A stretch of DNA of 64,000 bases. It comes from Patescibacteria group bacterium. GTDB taxonomy: Bacteria; Patescibacteriota; Patescibacteriia; GWA2-46-9. This document shows, in pieces, positions 5,229-33,538 of this stretch (the first letter of the stretch is position 1; every line of letters starts with the position of its first letter). The notes beneath the pieces were generated by a model. It ran no database searches. It saw only the letters and a list, made by a program, of their open reading frames with translations, and had not been told where the DNA came from. The position numbers and the translations under genes were made by a program. The stretch spans positions 64,835 through 128,834 of the forward strand of contig JBAZXG010000003.1 in NCBI GenBank assembly GCA_041660005.1. The letters are read 5' to 3'.

Positions 5229-7930
5229 GAGGCATCCCAACGCAGCAGCTGATTGTTTGCGATCAGTGTTTAGGATCGGGCATTTATCGCGGAAAGAAAT
5301 GCCGTTCGTGTTTTGGTGCTGGCACAGGGATAACCCTTGGCGGTATTAAAGCGTACGTTCCTCGAGATTTGAGCACGCGGCTACTAGAGGATGACCGCGT
5401 CTATTTACTTGCCCAAAGCGCAGTGCGCTTTACTTTTTTTATTATTGCCGTTATTTTTTTGGTTTACACAGCAGTGCGCGTGGTGGTTGGGTTAGTTGAG
5501 CAGTCGTATGGTGAGGTATATTCCATCGTGAACGCCACGGCAGGAAGTTCATTATTTTGGTTTGGAGCATTGGCTGCTCTTTACGTTTATAGCAGCATGG
5601 AGAGAGACTTGGCTGGAGCCGCGAAGGTTCCTCATAAAACATATGAACAAAAAAATATTTTTTCGTTCTTTCATCGGCAACCTAGAGCAATTAATATTTA
5701 CTCAGTATTAAGTGCTGACGCCAAGTTGCAGCTACTTCGCGCTACCCGTTTAGCCAGACGAAGAAAGGAGCATTTTTATTCTGAGCATCTTTTTCTTGCG
5801 TTGACTGTTGTTGGCAGTGTCCGCGAAATGTTTTCGCGCCTCGGCGTTGATGTCATTTCTGTTCGGGAAACGGTTGGTAGGGTACTTCGTGAGCAGGCCC
5901 ATGCAAAAACGACAACGTACGATGAGCTGGTGAAGATTTTACTTTTTTCCTATCGCGAAGCGTATATAGACCGCGGAACTAATATAGATATACCTTGTCT
6001 TTTTCTGGTAACAGCAATTGAGAGTGAACTTGTTCGCGAAGTGCTTTACGATTATGGCATCGACGATCAGAAATTGCGAAACGTCGTCCTCTGGCAACAA
6101 AACGAAAGGCTTTTGCGAAGCAGGTATCGTTATGTACGTTCTCGTAGTCGTATGCGTCCTAAAGGAAAACTTGATCGCGCCATGACGGCCCTGGCAACGC
6201 CGATGCTTGATCACTTTTCTGAAGATCTTACCGCATTAGCGCAGCGGGGTTATTTTCTCCCTGCGGTACGGCGGCAAGATGAAATTGATGCTGCTCTCCG
6301 TATTTTTGAAGGCGGTGGCGCACCCATACTGGTTGGTGAGGCGGGTGTCGGTAAGCGCAGCATACTTGAGGATATTGCTGATCGGATGGTGACCGGAGAG
6401 GTACCTGCTGTTTTGCAGGATAAACGGCTTGTTAGTTTATTGCTACCGCGAGTTGTCAGCGGAGTTACGCCCGCAGAGGCCGCCGAGCGCGTGCAGCGTC
6501 TTTTGTATGAGGCTGCACGAGCGAGGAACATTGTCCTCGCTATTAATGATGTGCATGGAGTTCGTGGTATTACGAGCGGTGGTGAAGGCAGTGTAGACTT
6601 AGCCGAGGTTTTAGCCGCAAATTTACGAACCCGGCGCGTGCCGTACTTAGCTACCAGTAAGCCCGACGAGTACCGTAAGTATCTTGAAGGTACTTCGCTT
6701 GCGGGCGTTTTTGAAACGGTACTGGTGCAAGAACCAACGATCGACGATACGATAAAAATAGTTCAGTCCCGTTTGACGATCACTGAGTTTAAACAGCATG
6801 TTTATTTTTCGTATGATGCTATTCAAAGACTTGTGAATCTGGTCAGCAAGTTTATGCCCGAGCGCCGTTTACCTAAGAAGGCGATTGAACTTCTCGATGA
6901 ACTTGCCCTTTTTGTTCGTCAGAAGAAAGGAGAATACAGCGTTATTTTGGCGGGTGACGTAGAGATGTTTTTGAGTAGTAAATTGAACATGCCGATTAAG
7001 CGCGTTGACAATAAAGAATCGTCGCTGCTTCTTTCCTTTGAAGACAGAGTACATGAACGGCTTGTCGACCAAGAGGAAGCCGTGAGCGCCGTTGCCAACG
7101 CACTCAGGCGTGCACGAGCTGAAGTTCGTGACGTGAAGAGGCCGGTCGTCAATTTACTTTTTCTTGGACCAACGGGCGTCGGTAAAACGGAGCTTGCTAA
7201 AACGGTTGCCGCTCTATACTTTGGCGACGAAGGAAAAATGGTTCGTCTTGATATGTCAGAGTTTCAAGACGCGGGTAGTGTAACGAAACTCATAGGCGGA
7301 GAAAGAAGCGGGGAACCGGGTATATTAACGCAGGCAGTCCGCAATAATCCCTTTTCCTTAGTGCTGCTTGATGAAGTTGAAAAAGCGAGTCCGGGAGTGC
7401 TCAATATATTTCTCCAAGTGATGGATGACGGACGGTTAACATCTGGCGCCGGTGAAACGATAGATTTTACGAACGTCATTCTGATTGCAACATCTAACGC
7501 TGGTGCGGCATATATTCAAGATGCAGTTCGTAATAGTGTAGCGTTTTCTGTGATTGAAAAAAATTTACGCCAGCAAGAACTCGGTAAGTTTTTTCAGCCG
7601 GAATTCATTAACCGATTTGACGGTGTCATTATGTTTAAACCGTTAACGCTTGAACACGTTTTGCAGATTACTCGTTTGCTTCTGGTGAAAATTGCCAAGA
7701 GGCTTTCTTCACAAGGAATTTATTTCGAACCCAGCGAAGAGGCGGTTGTAGAGTTAGCGCAAAAGGGCTACGACCCTGAGTTCGGTGCTCGTCCGTTACG
7801 CCGTGTTTTGCAGGACACTGTTGATTCTGAGATTGCTCGCTATCTACTTGACGGAAGGGTTAAGCGCCGCGATACTATTGTTCTTGAAGCGGGCGGAGTA
7901 ATACGTGTCAAAAAGGCAAAAAGCTTATGA
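5189..7930 (+). CDS. Clp/Hsp100-family double-AAA+ ATPase with N-terminal DnaJ-type zinc finger and two TM helices
   Basis: ORF 5102..7930; the start is uncertain and the ATG at 5189 is used here. The N-terminus has CDQCLGSG and CRSCFGAG motifs, two hydrophobic helices and a Clp_N-like repeat. NBD1 reads GEAGVGKRS / INDVH. NBD2 reads GPTGVGKTELAK / LLDEVEKA, followed by GARPLRRV near the C-terminus. Confidence 0.8.
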   Translation: MEARGVNTELHSVGGIPTQQLIVCDQCLGSGIYRGKKCRSCFGAGTGITLGGIKAYVPRDLSTRLLEDDRVYLLAQSAVRFTFFIIAVIFLVYTAVRVVVGLVEQSYGEVYSIVNATAGSSLFWFGALAALYVYSSMERDLAGAAKVPHKTYEQKNIFSFFHRQPRAINIYSVLSADAKLQLLRATRLARRRKEHFYSEHLFLALTVVGSVREMFSRLGVDVISVRETVGRVLREQAHAKTTTYDELVKILLFSYREAYIDRGTNIDIPCLFLVTAIESELVREVLYDYGIDDQKLRNVVLWQQNERLLRSRYRYVRSRSRMRPKGKLDRAMTALATPMLDHFSEDLTALAQRGYFLPAVRRQDEIDAALRIFEGGGAPILVGEAGVGKRSILEDIADRMVTGEVPAVLQDKRLVSLLLPRVVSGVTPAEAAERVQRLLYEAARARNIVLAINDVHGVRGITSGGEGSVDLAEVLAANLRTRRVPYLATSKPDEYRKYLEGTSLAGVFETVLVQEPTIDDTIKIVQSRLTITEFKQHVYFSYDAIQRLVNLVSKFMPERRLPKKAIELLDELALFVRQKKGEYSVILAGDVEMFLSSKLNMPIKRVDNKESSLLLSFEDRVHERLVDQEEAVSAVANALRRARAEVRDVKRPVVNLLFLGPTGVGKTELAKTVAALYFGDEGKMVRLDMSEFQDAGSVTKLIGGERSGEPGILTQAVRNNPFSLVLLDEVEKASPGVLNIFLQVMDDGRLTSGAGETIDFTNVILIATSNAGAAYIQDAVRNSVAFSVIEKNLRQQELGKFFQPEFINRFDGVIMFKPLTLEHVLQITRLLLVKIAKRLSSQGIYFEPSEEAVVELAQKGYDPEFGARPLRRVLQDTVDSEIARYLLDGRVKRRDTIVLEAGGVIRVKKAKSL

Positions 7931-25537: not shown

Positions 25538-25999
25538 ATGGGAGAACGCGAGCACACAGGTGACATTCCTGCAGATTGGAATAAAGATGCAAAGGAAGTT
25601 AGTCCTGATGATTGGGCGAGGGCTCGAATGGGTCTTGGTACGCCACCACAAGTTGAGGTTGATAAAGTTCGATCAGTGAGCGAACAGCTCAAAAATTTAC
25701 GTGATGCTTTACCTATTGCTGGGAAGCTTGAGTTTGTCGATCGTTTCCGGAAGAAATATCCGGATGCAGGAGCCGATATAAACCCACGTCAAGATATAAC
25801 CGCAGAAGAAGTCGATGAGTTATACATGAAATGTCTTACACGAGTCATGGACATAGAAGCACAAAGAGGGGGTAGTCGCTATGCTTATGAGGAACCACTA
25901 CAAAAACTTAGAGAGGAAGCGCCTGTTGTTTTTACAGAACCCACAAAGGCACAAGCACCCGAATCAACCGATGCTGCTGAGGTAAGTAGTGCGGAATAG
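25538..25999 (+). CDS. Hypothetical acidic protein
   Basis: 153-aa ORF bracketed by its own promoter-like element and a strong terminator. No family recognised. Confidence 0.4.
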   Translation: MGEREHTGDIPADWNKDAKEVSPDDWARARMGLGTPPQVEVDKVRSVSEQLKNLRDALPIAGKLEFVDRFRKKYPDAGADINPRQDITAEEVDELYMKCLTRVMDIEAQRGGSRYAYEEPLQKLREEAPVVFTEPTKAQAPESTDAAEVSSAE

Positions 26000-26021
26000 T
26001 TAGAAAAGAACACTCAACAAA

Positions 26022-26049
26022 AGAGCGACCACAAGGGTCGCTCTTTTGA
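26022..26049 (+). terminator. Rho-independent terminator
   Basis: 10-bp stem AAGAGCGACC / GGTCGCTCTT with loop ACAAG, followed by TT. Confidence 0.65.
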
Positions 26050-26113
26050 TTATGTTTAATTTATATATAAGTCCTCTTAATACAGTCTTCAAACCAAGTT
26101 TAACTTGGTACTC

Positions 26114-26171
26114 ATCTTGGCCCAGTCAAACTGGGCACACCTGCGTCAAACCAAGTTTGACTTGGTGGAGC
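26114..26171. repeat. 58-bp hairpin-rich repeat, copy A (abuts the 3' end of tRNA-Thr)
   Basis: ATCTTGGCCCAGTCAAACTGGGCACACCTGCGTCAAACCAAGTTTGACTTGGTGGAGC is identical base-for-base to 27282-27339. It contains the hairpins CCCAGT-CAA-ACTGGG and ACCAAGT-TTG-ACTTGGT. Confidence 0.95.
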
Positions 26172-26241
26172 CACCTCCCGGATTTGAACCGGGGACCTCT
26201 ACTTTACGAAAGTATTGCTCTACCAGCTGAGCTAAGGTGGC
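26166..26241 (-). tRNA. tRNA-Thr (anticodon CGU), CCA encoded
   Basis: The reverse complement folds as GCCACCT-TA-GCTC-AGCTGGTA-GAGC-A-ATACT-TTCGTAA-AGTAG-AGGTC-CCCGG-TTCAAAT-CCGGG-AGGTGGC-T-CCA. Confidence 0.92.
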
Positions 26242-26263
26242 AAAAGTTGTTTCAACTATGTTA

Positions 26264-27199
26264 TTAGTTATTTGGCTGTGTCCAGCAATGTATTCCGCTC
26301 GACATTGTTGCACAGAGTTTGTAGTGTTGTCCATCCTCAGAGGCGACATAAGTAAAACGTTTGAGCTGAATTTGATTGTCTTTATCTGTTGACTCGTCTA
26401 ATGTAATTTGCGCTTCAAGGAGTGTTTTCGGGTAAATCTTATATCTCAAGTAGAATAAATCAAGTTCAGCTCGCAAGAATTGACTCTTTCCCGATAACAT
26501 TTCGTCACTTGTATTAATTGAAACATTCACTTGTTGAATCATGTTAACAATTCCAAATGCAATTACTAAAACAACGACAATTATCGATACACCCGTAACA
26601 AATTGTTCAACTGCAAGGGATTTTCTGGATCGATTAATAATTATTTCTTTGTGCTGGAAACAATAAAGCAGCAGATAGTAAACGACAATAATATCAACCC
26701 CATGCAAACAAGTAAGATATGAATTGATTGAGTTGTAAGAAATAAGGAGATAGAGAAGAAAACCAAAAATATTGATTCCGGTAACCCAATTAACAATTTG
26801 TTTTGATCGGGTAGCATCAATTTGGCTTGTCTTAATTACACTATTTGTTGCAATCCAAATTGCAAACGAACTTGCCGAAAGATAAAGAAGTGCCACGAGT
26901 AGTAGTAGTGCTGCACGTGTTAGTTGCTGAGTAACGTCAGGAAGAAAAAAATTAACTAAGATACTGCCGAAGGTAAATACAAACGAACCGACAGCTAGTC
27001 GTGTAATTATTATGGTCCTTACTTGCCAGAATAAGCTTCGTTGAGATGGTAGGATGGGTGGTGTTGTAGGAGAAACTTCCATAAGGGTAAGGGTTATTTT
27101 CTTGGAGCGCTGCTTATCGCGAGACAATGACCTTATCATCAGGCAGTGGTTCATTCGATAACTCTGAGTACCGCAAACGTAATATTTATTGCTATCCAT
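26264..27199 (-). CDS. Hypothetical polytopic membrane protein with pilin-like C-terminal module
   Basis: 311-aa low-GC ORF with an uncertain start and about 5 hydrophobic helices. The last ~130 aa resemble a type IV pilin-like module (see findings). Confidence 0.5.
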   Translation of the reverse strand: MDSNKYYVCGTQSYRMNHCLMIRSLSRDKQRSKKITLTLMEVSPTTPPILPSQRSLFWQVRTIIITRLAVGSFVFTFGSILVNFFLPDVTQQLTRAALLLLVALLYLSASSFAIWIATNSVIKTSQIDATRSKQIVNWVTGINIFGFLLYLLISYNSINSYLTCLHGVDIIVVYYLLLYCFQHKEIIINRSRKSLAVEQFVTGVSIIVVVLVIAFGIVNMIQQVNVSINTSDEMLSGKSQFLRAELDLFYLRYKIYPKTLLEAQITLDESTDKDNQIQLKRFTYVASEDGQHYKLCATMSSGIHCWTQPNN

Positions 27200-27205
27200 A
27201 TGCCT

Positions 27206-27222
27206 GCGACGTCTGACGTCGC
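27206..27222. promoter_or_regulatory. Perfect 8+1+8 palindrome just upstream of ORF 26264..27199
   Basis: GCGACGTC-T-GACGTCGC, 7 nt upstream of the annotated ATG on the minus strand. Operator-like; its function is unknown. Confidence 0.35.
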
Positions 27223-27281
27223 ATACATAAAATATAATTACCTATCCCGTCAAACAAGACAGAATGTTTGACTTGCTAGGA

Positions 27282-27339
27282 ATCTTGGCCCAGTCAAACT
27301 GGGCACACCTGCGTCAAACCAAGTTTGACTTGGTGGAGC
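27282..27339. repeat. 58-bp hairpin-rich repeat, copy B (abuts the 3' end of tRNA-Gly)
   Basis: Identical to 26114-26171. Similarity continues in degenerate form for about 20 bp to the left (GTTTgACTTGcTA vs GTTTaACTTGgTA). Confidence 0.95.
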
Positions 27340-27407
27340 GGGATACGGGAATCGAACCCGTGCCTAAACCTTGGGAAGGTCTCGTACTGCCATTATACTA
27401 ATCCCGC
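27334..27407 (-). tRNA. tRNA-Gly (anticodon CCC), CCA encoded
   Basis: The reverse complement folds as GCGGGAT-TA-GTAT-AATGGCA-GTAC-G-AGACC-TTCCCAA-GGTTT-AGGC-ACGGG-TTCGATT-CCCGT-ATCCCGC-T-CCA. Confidence 0.9.
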
Positions 27408-29370: not shown

Positions 29371-29407
29371 AAAATCCTGGGCCCCCTTTACGGGGCTGAG
29401 GATTTTT
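29371..29407 (+). terminator. Hairpin terminator immediately after tRNA-Gln
   Basis: AAAATCCT-GG-GCCCC-CTTTAC-GGGGC-TG-AGGATTTT followed by T. Confidence 0.6.
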
Positions 29408-29418
29408 GATTGTAGGAG

Positions 29419-29681
29419 TATAATGGATTCGAACTTAGCATCACCCCGTGGCGGGTTTCTCGAGGGCCGAGGGGCCCTCGAAGTGGGGGTCGGGGTGAGG
29501 CGGTATGGTTCTAGGAGCTCCGCTAGCCGGCGGGGCGACGGAATCCTGTCCCCAGGTTGGAGATTTTTTGTTTGAGAGATACAATGAATTCGAAGCGGGA
29601 AGGTGTTCCGCCAGAGGCGGACAGGATGGGAAGCGAAGCGACTGGTTCTAGGCCCGTTTAACGGGCCGGAATCCATGTCCC
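29419..29681 (+). repeat. Two tandem GC-rich structured units carrying degraded copies of the tRNA-Gln 3' end
   Basis: Unit 1 is 29419-29553 and unit 2 is 29580-29681. Each reads TAyAAT-GrATTCGAA ... stable hairpin ... TGGTTCTAGG-hairpin-CGGAATCC(A)TGTCCC. Compare tRNA-Gln CATGGTTCGAATCCATGTCCCCCA. Confidence 0.6.
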
Positions 29682-29789: not shown

Positions 29790-30515
29790 ATGTTATTCAC
29801 GAAAAAAGAAATTTTAGATGAAATAAGACGTACCGCAGAAGAAAACGGGGGTATACCCTTAGGCATGGACAGGTTCAAAAAAGAAACTGGGATAGGCCCA
29901 TTTGACGTAAGCAGATATTGGCCACGCTTTGGTGATGCGATAAGTGAAGCTGGATTGACGCGAAACGAACGATGGACACGTTATTCTGACGATCTTTTAA
30001 TAGAGAAGTCAATTGAAAAAATAAGGAAGTATGGTAGGTACCCAACCTTGAATGAATTATTTGTGGAATTTAATCAGGGTGATGATTTTCCGTTTCACAT
30101 ATTCAAAAAACGTTCTCAACCTTACATGGTAAAGAAAATACTTGAATACTGTCATAGTAGAAACGGTTATGAAGATGTCATTCAGGCTTGTGAACCTATT
30201 CTTAAAAAATTGAACAGTAAGGATGACCTATATAGTGATACCAAAAAGACCGAAAAAATTGGTGAGGTTTATCTCTTTAAATCCGGTAAATACTATAAGA
30301 TTGGAAAAACAAATGATACCGTGCGACGTGGAAAAGAACTTCGAATTCAACTGCCTGAAAATTTAAAGCTAATTCATTCAATTAAAACTGATGACACAAG
30401 TGGTATTGAAACATATTGGCACAAAAGGTTTGAGGGTAAGAGGATGAACGGTGAATGGTTTGATTTAAGTGCAGCAGATATTAAATCCTTTAAAAGCTGG
30501 AGGCGTATAGCTTAG
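29790..30515 (+). CDS. GIY-YIG superfamily (T5orf172/MUG113-type) protein with two N-terminal homing-endonuclease-associated helical repeats
   Basis: N-terminal repeats KKEILDEIRRTAEENGGIPL...RFGDAISEAGL and a second degenerate copy. The C-terminus reads GEVYLFKSGKYYKIGKTNDTVRRGKEL...YWHKRFEGKRMNGEWFDL. Confidence 0.65.
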   Translation: MLFTKKEILDEIRRTAEENGGIPLGMDRFKKETGIGPFDVSRYWPRFGDAISEAGLTRNERWTRYSDDLLIEKSIEKIRKYGRYPTLNELFVEFNQGDDFPFHIFKKRSQPYMVKKILEYCHSRNGYEDVIQACEPILKKLNSKDDLYSDTKKTEKIGEVYLFKSGKYYKIGKTNDTVRRGKELRIQLPENLKLIHSIKTDDTSGIETYWHKRFEGKRMNGEWFDLSAADIKSFKSWRRIA

Positions 30516-30594
30516 GTTCATTTATTATCTTAAGGTAGGTTTCGCATTCCGAAGAGTATTGGATTAATTGTGCGTGTTTTAATGAAATTGTTAT

Positions 30595-31140
30595 ATGGAT
30601 GAGAAAAACGAAGAAAGACTAGCTCCAGATGGTCTGCCGAAGCATTTTAAGATTGAGTGGAATGAGCCATTTTCTGTCTCCACTGGATCAACACCAGGAT
30701 CGTATTCTTCTGTTTCGATTCCAGTTGATTCCACAAAGTTGAAATCGGCAAAAATAAACACAGGTGGTAGTGGCGGTGTGATATTCGAAGATACGCCAGT
30801 ATATAAGTTTAAAACTACAAATTTAAAAATTAAAGACGGTAACTCTTGGGCCCATGTACGTACAAAAGTTGATTCAAGGGGAGATTATATTGATGTAATT
30901 TTTGGAAATTCAATAAACCCTCGACATTCACACATAGGATTTGAATTATCAGCTCCGCTTTTTTTAGAAATGCGAAACAAAGGCACTATTAATACAGAAT
31001 CTGCCGCTGAGGAAGGTGTAGGAGTGACCGCAGGTTCGCTTAGCTTAAAGGATACTCCTACAGGGAAATTAGTAAGACTCGACTTCGCATTAAATCTAAG
31101 TAGTAATGAAATAGAGATAACTGATTTTATTTTTATTTAG
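30595..31140 (+). CDS. Hypothetical protein (cassette gene B)
   Basis: 181-aa soluble, beta-rich ORF in the low-GC block. No family recognised. Confidence 0.45.
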   Translation: MDEKNEERLAPDGLPKHFKIEWNEPFSVSTGSTPGSYSSVSIPVDSTKLKSAKINTGGSGGVIFEDTPVYKFKTTNLKIKDGNSWAHVRTKVDSRGDYIDVIFGNSINPRHSHIGFELSAPLFLEMRNKGTINTESAAEEGVGVTAGSLSLKDTPTGKLVRLDFALNLSSNEIEITDFIFI

Positions 31141-31152
31141 TGTTTAAAGACA

Positions 31153-31629
31153 ATGACAAATATAGCTTGGAATTTAAGAAGCATCGTAATTTATGAAAAA
31201 ATCACTAACAAAGAATCCGGAAATTCAGGAGAACAAGAGATTGTGGATCTTGTACCGTGTCCGAATTGCGGTAAGAAGTTGATGAAACTTCCCCCGAACT
31301 ATCCTTTATATGACGTTCAATGCACGGGGTGCTCTTTTCGTGCCCAAGTAAAGACAAACCAGAGCAAACCAAAGTCCGTCGTTTTTGGTGCAGGATGGCA
31401 AATTATGAACAAGGTGTTGAAGTCTGGTTATATGACACCGCCCCTATTTCTTAATTTTAAGTGGCTAGAAAAAAGCATTCAAAGACAGGAAGTCCGTTTT
31501 TATCCGTTTGTACCTAAAAAGAATCTCTCCAACTACCGTCTTTCTAATACAGCCAGACGCGCCAACTACGAAATGTTTACTTATACAGGGATGGACAAAC
31601 TTCCATATTTTTCAGTATTTAAAAAATGA
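31153..31629 (+). CDS. Zinc-ribbon PD-(D/E)xK-like nuclease, DpnI/Dam-replacing-family-like catalytic domain only (cassette gene C)
   Basis: CPNCGKKL...YDVQCTGCSFRAQVKT...GAGWQIMNKVL...PPLFLNF...LSNTARRANY is colinear with my recollection of the DpnI N-terminal domain. There is no winged-helix C-terminal domain. Confidence 0.5.
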   Translation: MTNIAWNLRSIVIYEKITNKESGNSGEQEIVDLVPCPNCGKKLMKLPPNYPLYDVQCTGCSFRAQVKTNQSKPKSVVFGAGWQIMNKVLKSGYMTPPLFLNFKWLEKSIQRQEVRFYPFVPKKNLSNYRLSNTARRANYEMFTYTGMDKLPYFSVFKK

Positions 31630-31662
31630 TAAGGTGTTTAGAAATTATAATTAGTGAATAAT

Positions 31663-32535
31663 ATGGATCAGTCTTCCGTGTTGGCTTTAGCAAGTTTATC
31701 AAAAGATATAGCACAGCTTAATTTAGGATACTTAGGAATATCAGTAGCAATTCTTGGTGCGCTTGGTGGGGTTTTTGTTTATTTTAACTTAAATCCCTTG
31801 AAAGAAAACTTAAGCAAACAAGAAAAGAAAATCGAAGATTTAAAAGCCGAAGCACACAGCTTATTAGATGAATCAAAAGTTCAATCTGAGAAAACACTTG
31901 AAGATTTTGCAATAAGTCAGTTTGATAAAACGAGCCTACTTCTTAAACAGCAAAAAAATGAAATTGACTTAGAGACAAAAAATAAGATACAAGATTCTCA
32001 TAGTTTGTTATCGGATAAAATTGAAAATATTTCAGAAAGTAAAGACCTGAAACTTAAAGAAATTATTCTTTCGGAGTCTAATAATAATTTAGCTATCCTA
32101 GACAAAAATCTAACCCTGAAAATTAGTACGACCAAAGAGGATGTTCTTAAAGAAATTAAGTTAGTGAATGCTGGGATAAATGCAAAAATTAAGGAATTAA
32201 GTGAAAAAGTCATAGAATTGCAGGTTTATAAATACAGTAAAGAAGGACAGATGGGTGCAATAATTTATTCTATTGAGTTGCTTGAAAATGCGATAGAAGA
32301 TTATTTTAAAACGAAAAAAGAACTTGTTAATAAGTTGGAAAATTCATCTGACGACAAGACGTTTGGGTGGAAAGTTAATTATAGGTTAGAGGGTTTAATA
32401 AAGGAAATTGGTGATTCCAAATTGGAGGAGGATGAAGTCAAAAAAATTCTTATACAAATATCAAAAATTGAAAATGAAAGTGTTTTTAAGGTTTTAGCTG
32501 GAGAACTTAAGAAAAAAGTTTTGTATAAAAATTGA
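31663..32535 (+). CDS. Single-pass membrane protein with long K/E-rich coiled coil (cassette gene D)
   Basis: TM helix LGYLGISVAILGALGGVFVYF, then about 240 aa of heptad-like K/E/L-rich sequence. GTG at 31654 is an alternative start. Confidence 0.5.
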   Translation: MDQSSVLALASLSKDIAQLNLGYLGISVAILGALGGVFVYFNLNPLKENLSKQEKKIEDLKAEAHSLLDESKVQSEKTLEDFAISQFDKTSLLLKQQKNEIDLETKNKIQDSHSLLSDKIENISESKDLKLKEIILSESNNNLAILDKNLTLKISTTKEDVLKEIKLVNAGINAKIKELSEKVIELQVYKYSKEGQMGAIIYSIELLENAIEDYFKTKKELVNKLENSSDDKTFGWKVNYRLEGLIKEIGDSKLEEDEVKKILIQISKIENESVFKVLAGELKKKVLYKN

Positions 32536-32590
32536 AGTTCCATTTTATCTGCAAACATACTAACTTGTAATAGATAATTTACCAATAAAT

Positions 32591-33538
32591 ATGGAAAATA
32601 TTGCAGAAAAATTCTTCAATTCCTTTACTAAAATGGAAGATATCGAAAAATTAATTAGCGAAGGAGAAACCGAAGGCCAATATCTAGAATGTAAAAGCCC
32701 TCAGGGTCCATATTTTGACAAAGGATTGAAATCACAGCTAGCAAAAGAACTCTCTGCTTTCGCTAATGCAGGTGGTGGGGTTATTTTATTTGGTGTTTCT
32801 ACCACAAAACATAAGCATTCTGAAACAGATGTTTTGTCTCAGATTGAAGAAGTGGGAGCAGTTAAAAAATTTAGAAAAGAACTTGACGTGATCACAACAA
32901 CCTTAATTGAACCATCTATAATATCTTGTAGGTCAAAAGTTATTTTTAGAAATCCTTCTGATTCTAGGGGAGTAGTAGTAACTTTTGTTCCTCCAACTCC
33001 TGGTGATCCAATTAGAAGTAACCTTGACCGTGAGTTTTATATAAGAATTGGGGATGATTCAAGCAAAATGCCATATGAAACCGTAAAAAAAATGTTTGCT
33101 GGGACAGCAGGTCCAGAATTATCAGCGTTGTTTAATGACAGATTAGTAAAGTTAGAAGGTGATGGATCATGGAAAATTCCAATAATTTTAAGTAACGAAT
33201 CTAGTGCTGCAGCCAAAGACACAGAAGTTTCAGTCACGGTAATAAATGGTAGTGCCTGTGAAACTATTAGTGGAGAAATCTTCAAGGATCAGTCAAATGT
33301 AAACCCTGGGTCAAAAGTATTTATGACTGATATCGATAAGCCAATTTTTAGGGGAAAGAACGTTGTGGTCGGCTATATAGTTGTAAAAATGAAAAAAGCA
33401 AAGTTTTATAAAAGAAATTTAAATCTCAAAATAGATATATTTGCTAGTAATATGAGGGCTAAAACATATACGATAACAATAAAACTCGCAAAAAAGGGCT
33501 TTTCTGTAATGAAAACTAAGTCTGAATATTTATACTAG
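32591..33538 (+). CDS. AlbA_2/Schlafen-type putative nucleic-acid-binding domain protein with unknown C-terminal domain (cassette gene E)
   Basis: EGETEGQYLECKSPQ...LAKELSAFANAGGGVILFGVS matches the AlbA_2 (PF04326-like) pattern as I recall it. The C-terminal ~170 aa are unassigned. Confidence 0.55.
   Translation: MENIAEKFFNSFTKMEDIEKLISEGETEGQYLECKSPQGPYFDKGLKSQLAKELSAFANAGGGVILFGVSTTKHKHSETDVLSQIEEVGAVKKFRKELDVITTTLIEPSIISCRSKVIFRNPSDSRGVVVTFVPPTPGDPIRSNLDREFYIRIGDDSSKMPYETVKKMFAGTAGPELSALFNDRLVKLEGDGSWKIPIILSNESSAAAKDTEVSVTVINGSACETISGEIFKDQSNVNPGSKVFMTDIDKPIFRGKNVVVGYIVVKMKKAKFYKRNLNLKIDIFASNMRAKTYTITIKLAKKGFSVMKTKSEYLY

Follow-up and report, generated by a model that had tools for sequence, protein, structure and literature searches.

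A 58-bp hairpin repeat behind two tRNA genes of a Patescibacteria genome is probably an extra copy of the leader of tRNA-end GIY-YIG nuclease cassettes

In a 64,000-nt stretch of DNA from a Patescibacteria group bacterium (assembly GCA_041660005.1, 154-kb contig JBAZXG010000003.1, positions 64,835 to 128,834; hereafter the window), we examined a 58-bp repeat that lies directly behind two different tRNA genes. The locus is arranged in the order LemA, TPM, a 153-aa open reading frame (ORF), a terminator, tRNA-Thr(CGU) on the minus strand, an ORFan gene and tRNA-Gly(CCC), followed by ftsE, ftsX and tRNA-Gln. An initial annotation had claimed that the two stretches, copy A after tRNA-Thr and copy B after tRNA-Gly (Table 1), are identical and that each starts in the CCA end of its tRNA with only 6 tRNA-derived nt. 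Our comparison confirmed the identity over the full 58 bp, and ARAGORN and Rfam agreed on both tRNA borders. The two tRNAs differ, and TGGAGC (GCT + CCA in the tRNA sense) is the sole tRNA sequence inside the repeat. Start-to-start spacing of the copies is 1168 nt, and simple arithmetic puts the chance expectation of an exact 58-mer repeat in 64 kb at ~1e-26.

The remaining 52 nt of each copy form a double-hairpin module. In the transcript sense, both copies read CCA, CCAAG-TCAAA-CTTGG (h1'), TTTGACGCAGGTGT, and GCCCAG-TTTGA-CTGGGC (h2'), the same hairpins that had been annotated as CCAAGT-CAA-ACTTGG and GCCCAGT-TTG-ACTGGGC. Resemblance between the copies extends past the 58 bp (11 of 16 positions match), since the unit that follows is another member of the hairpin family. 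Beside copy A, this third hairpin is present as annotated, but 26094-26108 is centred on GTTTAAC rather than GTTTGAC. Copy A consists of the two module hairpins and then the third family hairpin, which may be the residue of a former cassette leader, and it carries no nuclease gene. Across the family, the centres GTCAAAC, GTTTGAC, and GTCWGAC show single-base differences. As a genome-wide uptake-like signal GTCAAAC was rejected, given that outside the two loci it was observed 14 times versus 10.8 expected.

Copy B is followed by the remains of a nuclease gene. Window positions 27175-27381 match a 1785-nt metagenome contig (L070) at 95.7% identity across 207 bp, a block that holds the 3' 48 nt of tRNA-Gly (GCC in L070, CCC in the window), the module, a further hairpin region, the palindrome TGCGACGTCAGACGTCGCA, and the codons MDSNKYYV. 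In L070 the 58-bp repeat is identical, follows tRNA-Gly(GCC), and precedes an intact 93-aa GIY-YIG gene. Outside the tRNA, the two sequences differ by four mismatches, all transitions, and homology collapses at 27175. Comparison of the two loci points to a recent paralogous copying and to decay of the cassette in the window. The L070 protein, P0122 (MFA5954345.1), matched the Pfam GIY-YIG family PF01541 with an E of 1.7e-15, and its best solved-structure matches were the UPF0213 proteins PDB 1zg2 (E 1.9e-4) and 1ywl (E 6.4e-3). By sequence, it belongs with the UPF0213-like single-domain GIY-YIG proteins of ~90-100 aa. The catalytic domain motifs are intact in P0122 and its homologues; the window keeps only the 8-codon stub.

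This stub changes how the gene enclosed by the repeats is read. The ORFan reading frame is open upstream as far as the GIY-YIG ATG at 27199, and the long ORF of 26264-27199 takes its first 8 codons from a different gene, the nuclease. The single membrane-protein gene of the initial annotation is present as an ORF, but its first 8 codons belong to the GIY-YIG gene. Similarly, the palindrome noted in front of it exists, though as a 9+1+9 rather than an 8+1+8 structure. The arrangement suggests that the ORFan gene may have been captured at a broken cassette.

To place the broken cassette in a wider setting, we compared homologues of P0122. Those at 72-84% identity all lay directly after a tRNA or transfer-messenger RNA (tmRNA) gene on the same strand, and with more distant genes included, eight of the nine independent contexts examined were directly 3' of a tRNA or tmRNA (Table 1). 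A cassette measures ~350 bp and encodes a UPF0213-like nuclease of 83-101 aa; across the protein family, 33 columns do not vary, among them the catalytic YxY, YIG, R, H, and E positions. The leader is also conserved and runs CCA, h1 (stem-TCAAA-stem), h2 (usually GTCCCG-TTTGA-CGGGAC), a ATTATATTT box, the palindrome NCGACGTCWGACGTCGN, and ATG. In five further homologues, the palindrome box is translated as 'TSDV' within an N-terminal extension. One hairpin stood alone: at 3448-3504 of L080, a solo GACACG-TTTGA-CGTGTC lies ~20 nt past tRNA-Ser(CGA) with no GIY-YIG gene, in a genome that also has a tmRNA cassette. In viral collections, we found no GIY-YIG relative and no mini-hairpin; four palindrome matches there fell in high-GC coding sequence without a tRNA or GIY-YIG gene and were set aside.

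In a leader alignment of seven cassettes (A4), 96% of the cells were paired and both sides had changed in 9 of 18 pairs, a result reached by none of 500 shuffles, although with only seven related sequences the alignment supports the hairpins and cannot prove selection for them. We then built a covariance model (R1) from seven cassettes, including window copy B, and left out L035, L025, and L078; these three scored 33.6, 32.6, and 28.9 bits, respectively. On the window, R1 gave 88.4 bits for the copy B leader at 27205-27276, which is a training sequence, and a weak match 3' of copy A at 26024-26108 (21.5 bits, E 0.008). Relative to the other cassettes, the window and L070 leaders carry a 57-nt insertion exactly between CCA and h1. 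The 52-nt module, judged from these alignments, is an extra pair of h1-like (TCAAA) and h2-like (TTTGA) hairpins with new stems, placed between the CCA and the ordinary leader. The ordinary leader is still discernible behind copy B as degenerate h1 and h2, which were assigned from alignments A1 and A4 with L072, L076, L077, and L079. Its AT-rich box AATTATATTT may be a -10-like element. A sigma-70 promoter composed of the h2 TTGACG and this box was considered and dropped, since the spacing of 11-12 nt is too short.

Table 1. Features of the repeat locus (window coordinates) and of related cassettes and hairpins on other contigs
Feature	Position or contig	Strand	Remarks
Bidirectional intrinsic terminator	26018..26048	both	13-bp stem, T-runs on both strands
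Third hairpin, same family	26085..26108	-	CCAAG-TTAAA-CTTGG + TTTGAAGAC
Copy A of 58-bp repeat	26114..26171	-	solo double-hairpin module after tRNA-Thr
Copy A h2'	26120-26136	-	
Copy A h1'	26151-26165	-	
tRNA-Thr(CGU)	26166..26241	-	ARAGORN + Rfam; CCA native
ORFan membrane-protein gene WC817_02960	26264..27082	-	272 aa; low GC; present in L088
GIY-YIG gene stub	27175..27199	-	ATG + 7 codons (MDSNKYYV); homology to intact L070 gene stops at 27175
Palindrome TGCGACGTCAGACGTCGCA	27205..27223	-	9+1+9, just 5' of ATG; equals the family's GACGTCWGACGTC box
AT-rich box AATTATATTT	27230..27239	-	conserved columns in A1, A4
Degenerate h2	27244-27260	-	GTCTTG-TTTGA-CGGGAT; sense-strand pairing only via G-U
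h1 remnant of ordinary cassette leader	27260-27275	-	CAAGTCAAACATTCTG; degenerate, 5' arm lost
Copy B of 58-bp repeat	27282..27339	-	GCT + CCA + 52-nt double-hairpin module
Copy B h2'	27288-27304	-	GCCCAG-TTTGA-CTGGGC
Copy B h1'	27319-27333	-	CCAAG-TCAAA-CTTGG
tRNA-Gly(CCC)	27334..27407	-	ARAGORN + Rfam, 64.7 bits; CCA encoded
Cassettes after tRNA-His	L072-75, L076, L078		
Cassette after tRNA-Arg(GCG)	L077		
Cassette after tRNA-Gly(CCC)	L079		
Cassettes after tmRNA	L080-87		
More distant GIY-YIG genes after tRNA-Ala(GGC)	L035, L025		
Mini-hairpin	L025		in hairpin 1
Mini-hairpin	L035		in hairpin 2
Mini-hairpin	L078		in h2 loop
Mini-hairpin	L076		behind palindrome

Relatives indicated which parts of the locus are old. 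The nearest relative in the protein database was Candidatus Uhrbacteria CG10 (L002), with an FtsE 86% identical to that of the window. In L002 and in a second relative, L004, tRNA-Gly(CCC) lies next to tRNA-Thr(CGU) on the same strand, at distances of 270 and 28 bp, respectively; in L079, the order is tRNA-Gly(CCC), a GIY-YIG cassette, an HD-domain gene, a 74-aa ORF, and tRNA-Thr(CGU). We conclude from this shared gene order that having tRNA-Thr(CGU) next to tRNA-Gly(CCC) is the ancestral state. The tRNA-Gly(CCC) site is thus polymorphic: the window and L079 have a cassette there, and L002 and L004 do not. In the two empty sites, the tRNA ends GCT|GAGG with no encoded CCA (L002 7517, L004 6373); CCA is encoded only where a cassette follows, as in the window (27334-27336) and L079, and appears from this comparison to have arrived together with the cassette. 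Since the relatives' tRNAs are adjacent and their tRNA-Gly lacks CCA, ~1.09 kb, plus CCA and 52 nt, was added between the two genes in the window lineage, and the junction of the added CCA + 52 nt falls within the natively shared GCT of tRNA-Gly. The tRNA-Thr of L002 and L004 has an encoded CCA and then, at once, an ordinary terminator hairpin.

This gain between ancestral neighbours contradicts the view of tRNA-Thr as the cargo of a mobile unit delimited by the repeats. The initial annotation had raised the possibility of attachment (att)-like sites able to loop out a 1.1-kb integrative element with tRNA-Thr and the membrane-protein gene, and a family of integrative elements does use att sites in tRNA 3' ends (surveyed in PMC2718499). 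As in such elements, direct repeats beside tRNA genes flank low-GC DNA: the enclosed gene is AT-rich, as had been noted, with a GC content of 0.32-0.37 versus 0.45-0.49 in the surroundings. However, neither Pfam nor NCBIfam matches the sole ORF between the repeats, no integrase or recombinase lies there, nearly all of the repeat is outside the tRNA, with just 6 nt inside it, and the flanked tRNA-Thr is ancestral at its position. Furthermore, the 207-bp paralogous block that contains copy B ends inside the ORF rather than at a second att site, and a third copy is found behind an unrelated tRNA, where another gene follows it. We therefore regard an excisable element as highly improbable.

The third copy is that of L070. 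MFA5954345.1 is encoded on a 238-kb contig, and its accession number is 121 away from the window's MFA5954466/7; given these close numbers, the P0122 locus presumably belongs to the same metagenome-assembled genome (MAG) as the window. On that placement, we infer that the source genome has at least three module copies, each at the CCA of a different tRNA: Gly-GCC on the other contig, with an intact cassette; Gly-CCC (copy B), with a cassette cut after 8 codons; and Thr-CGU (copy A), solo. Multiple copies of a module can mislead an assembler, and the junction between tRNA-Gly(CCC) and copy B (27259-27340) is covered by the source contig only. Nevertheless, an independent Logan assembly contig (L088) matches window 26216-27258 at 100%, including copy-B-specific single-nucleotide polymorphisms, L070 confirms the join of module and leader in another sample, and the 58-bp repeat is shorter than a read. 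It is thus very unlikely that the arrangement is an artefact of assembly from a repeat shared between loci.

Taken together, the 58-bp repeat is probably GCT-CCA plus a lineage-specific extra copy of the two-hairpin leader of tiny GIY-YIG cassettes that sit after tRNA and tmRNA genes, a decaying selfish family that has been copied between tRNA 3' ends. The perfect identity of the copies would then reflect recent non-reciprocal copying between tRNA 3' ends in the genome, by a mechanism that we propose here, rather than att recombination around 1.1 kb. Both the catalyst of the copying and the function of the hairpins are inferred. The cassette would be transcribed by read-through from the tRNA promoter, and the hairpins (loops GUCAAAC/GUUUGAC, covarying stems), together with the GACGTCWGACGTC palindrome, would be recognition, processing, or operator structures. 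The nuclease would cut tRNA ends that have no cassette, and the element would spread when the break is repaired from a copy that has one, as with free-standing homing endonucleases. A left homology arm for this repair could be provided by CACGGGTTCGATTCCCGT..CCCGCT, which is common to the tRNA-Gly isoacceptors, and purifying selection on the tRNA would leave surviving junctions only at the discriminator/CCA boundary. The palindrome may serve as an operator or target mimic; autorepression is known for I-TevI.

Several points weigh against this reading. Nuclease activity, target site, and transfer event are predictions from sequence. Right-hand homology is lacking between non-homologous tRNAs, so spread among them could not use ordinary two-sided homologous repair, and the proteins consist of the catalytic domain alone, unlike characterised homing endonucleases, which have a DNA-binding domain. 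No cassette remnant is recognisable at copy A beyond the weak R1 match, and movement of, or selection on, the 52-nt module could accordingly be uncoupled from the nuclease gene. The exception among the nine contexts is a distant GIY-YIG gene in L067 (363-612), located on the 5' side and ending exactly where tRNA-Val(CAC) begins; in L067 we found no upstream tRNA that would fit the 'after tRNA' rule. That tRNA-Val encodes no CCA and has a mini-hairpin 25 nt past its end. Finally, both the module copy number and the rule that it always follows a tRNA are based on 64 kb plus one paralogous contig.

Because the module occupies the tRNA trailer, we also considered whether it is a functional trailer RNA under selection, acting as a processing signal, a 3' exonuclease block, or an insulator or attenuator. 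The module is always on the transcribed strand directly after CCA, its hairpins fold more stably than shuffled sequence (z-scores -3.3 and -4.3), and the stems covary around conserved loops. In the window, the degenerate h2 pairs only through sense-strand G-U, and the h1 and h2 loops (GTCAAAC and GTTTGAC) are mutually complementary 7-mers that permit an alternative pairing. The earlier suggestion of a trailer or terminator module is correct in its location and in the retention of the stems. The terminator part does not hold: no U-tract follows h1' or h2', and a scan for intrinsic terminators called neither hairpin, its calls near the repeats being 27263-27241, with a weak tail, and the true terminator at 26018-26048. 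An Rfam search of the trailer returned no family match at E <= 1; only the tRNAs matched. Moreover, the module is absent after the orthologous tRNA-Thr and tRNA-Gly of the relatives, where ordinary terminators or a short spacer are found instead, and the tRNA-Lys and tRNA-Gln of the window lack it. Given a flank divergence of ~2.5%, zero differences in 52 nt are unremarkable, and selection is not needed to explain the identity. We consider a selected trailer RNA to be unlikely.

The hairpins are not confined to tRNA ends. A metagenome scan for CCAAGTYWRACTTGGTTTGA yielded 66 loci and 51 distinct instances, most of them not near tRNAs. About half of these (26/51) had an exact TTTGA on the unsearched side, 16/51 were enclosed by an outer stem (5 bp or longer) of varying, covarying sequence, and no gene or protein family recurred in the flanks of 55 motif loci. 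Between otherwise collinear leaders (for example L035/L025, at two different loops, L078/L076, and L076/L072), mini-hairpins of 18-20 nt were present in one and absent from the other. Presence/absence and the non-tRNA sites indicate that this small unit has the behaviour of a miniature insertion and no specificity for tRNAs. Such a finding had been named beforehand as evidence for a generic repeat, and it applies to the hairpin unit of 15-20 nt, which occurs at many non-tRNA sites, but not to the 52-nt module, which was found only at tRNA ends. A scan for the 21-mer GTCAAACCAAGTTTGACTTGG in a set of genome contigs that does not include the source genome gave one match, in a Paceibacterota MAG (L001) and not at a tRNA.

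We also noted a Patescibacteria-type motif, TTTGA-CCAAGTCWGACTTGG-TTTGA, that is widespread among L005-L069; in effect, it is three TYWGAC hexamers spaced 10 bp apart. Often it sits within a hairpin whose outer stem is complementary but varies in sequence, which gives the impression that a TTTGA loop has received a 20-nt hairpin. On the 724-kb contig Ga0209515_10000002, three palindromic elements of ~75 nt (L009, L020, and L021) read CGTCATTCTGG...CCAAGTCTGACTTGGTTTGACTTGG...CCAGAATGACG; each has a mini-hairpin at its centre and a look resembling miniature inverted-repeat transposable elements (MITEs).

These observations bring in a further alternative, that the double hairpin is an autonomous element of the repetitive extragenic palindrome (REP) or MITE kind, moved in trans by some other enzyme, for example a single-strand transposase. 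Such an element would prefer the 3' side of CCA and TTTGA loops, and its association with GIY-YIG genes would be incidental, a sharing of safe havens; in part, the idea overlaps with the copied cassette leader that we favour. The presence/absence of mini-hairpins, their TTTGA flanks and covarying outer stems, their distance from tRNAs and lack of a shared neighbour gene, and the insertion of the module between the CCA and an older leader all argue for it. REP elements, including BIMEs and REPINs, are likewise short extragenic palindromes of 15-40 nt that occur singly, in pairs, or arrayed in alternating orientation, show insertion-like polymorphism, and have associated RAYT transposases (PMC2817692, PMC3733652, PMC3116915). 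However, they number tens to hundreds per genome, whereas copy number here is very low, with no further hairpin units in the other 62 kb of the window and three strict matches in the 724-kb contig. One end of a REP palindrome bears a conserved tag, GTAG or CGTC (PMC3733652); the units here are flanked by TTTGA or CCA and have no such tag. We saw no RAYT or other transposase candidate, neither the window nor the genome having been screened for Y1 transposases. In addition, the units combine conserved loops with variable stems, the reverse of what copy-paste repeats show, and are placed preferentially at tRNA ends and in hairpin loops. The initial annotation's REP/MITE-like element targeting tRNA ends was the closest of its proposals to the evidence, though incomplete, as the module is the leader of a GIY-YIG cassette. 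As a full explanation, an autonomous element is possible but doubtful.

Elements of the IS200/IS605 type, which form single-strand hairpins, integrate on the 3' side of a short target motif and do not duplicate the target. By analogy only, the mini-hairpins follow TTTGA (or TCTAA) on its 3' side and end in TTTGA, like a left target and a right cleavage motif. At 18-20 nt, they are far smaller than IS200/IS605 elements, and we identified no TnpA-like gene.

A bolder version of the cassette reading, which we offer tentatively and think improbable as a whole, is that the UPF0213-type genes of Patescibacteria form an undescribed class of minimal mobile element: a ~350-bp cassette that inserts exactly after the CCA of tRNA or tmRNA genes and supplies an encoded CCA where the gene had none. 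The GTYWRAC-centred hairpins would then be structure-specific sites of the nuclease, spawning the 18-20-nt mini-hairpins that enter TTTGA loops. The gain of CCA at the DNA level might even be a sign of an RNA-templated or tRNA-primed step.

As a working analogue, the cassettes are most like free-standing GIY-YIG homing endonuclease genes. The Seg proteins of phage T4 are enzymes of this kind, and segB, located in the tRNA cluster, promotes the inheritance of this part of the phage genome (PMC2330249). In both cases, a small selfish GIY-YIG gene is found among tRNA genes, is present or absent at conserved sites in relatives, and has flanking sequence copied along with it, here the CCA and the leader. 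The comparison has limits: the cassette proteins, at 83-101 aa, are catalytic domain only and lack the separate DNA-binding domain that gives site specificity, the cassettes are chromosomal in Patescibacteria, their left border falls exactly at the tRNA/tmRNA CCA and is followed by a structured hairpin leader, and cleavage of the cassette-free allele is here a prediction. The UPF0213/COG2827 proteins, of which E. coli YhbQ is a member, are also close. BH0048 (PDB 1zg2) and EF2693 (PDB 1ywl) are the same size and single-domain, although similarity is modest. In the literature searched, no tRNA-end linkage or conserved leader is described for that family, nor did we find tRNA-linked small GIY-YIG cassettes or these Patescibacteria palindromes described there.

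Structures have been solved for small UPF0213/COG2827 GIY-YIG proteins, which are widespread but have, to our knowledge, no agreed function. The strict position at the tRNA/tmRNA CCA, the covarying leader, and the pattern of gain and decay provide a testable hypothesis for them, a selfish nuclease cassette that targets tRNA ends. What is new is the combination of a selfish GIY-YIG gene with palindromic miniature repeats, each of a known kind. It would account for a local hot spot, in very small genomes, where genes turn over between tRNA-Gly and tRNA-Thr, and for the acquisition of an encoded CCA by a tRNA gene. Insertions of one hairpin in another may report a DNA transaction not yet known, and repeats of this type are a source of MAG fragmentation.

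Turning to the neighbourhood, the terminator serves both the convergent gene at 25538-25999 and the tRNA-Thr transcript. The ORFan gene matched only itself among 5.8e9 proteins, and a search of 1.84e9 representative proteins gave eight weak, distant matches. Two candidate features near its start were rejected. A pseudo-tRNA in 27100-27175 ending in GCGCTCCA had no acceptor pairing and no ARAGORN or Rfam call, and a 20-nt stretch of L070 that matches window 27087-27106 in inverted orientation (E 0.018) was taken as chance. In L002, a 1.6-kb stretch upstream of tRNA-Thr (6230-6900 and 7095-7107) has no called gene and contains a run of N; it reads as fragments of a glycoside-hydrolase/alpha-amylase gene, reflecting either a pseudogene or an assembly gap.

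Behind tRNA-Gln(UUG), the plus strand of 29400-29640 is non-coding and GC-rich (0.54), with a modestly stable fold (z -2.2) and a sub-threshold Rfam match to Actinomyces-1 RNA (28.5 bits versus a gathering score of 39.1, E 0.11); ORFs on either strand look spurious. A second low-GC island (29790-33500, GC 0.28-0.39) starts ~420 bp past the same tRNA. Its first gene, 29790-30515, encodes the homing-endonuclease-associated HNH_repeat together with MUG113/T5orf172, a GIY-YIG-like nuclease fold, and looks like another nuclease gene tied to a tRNA end.

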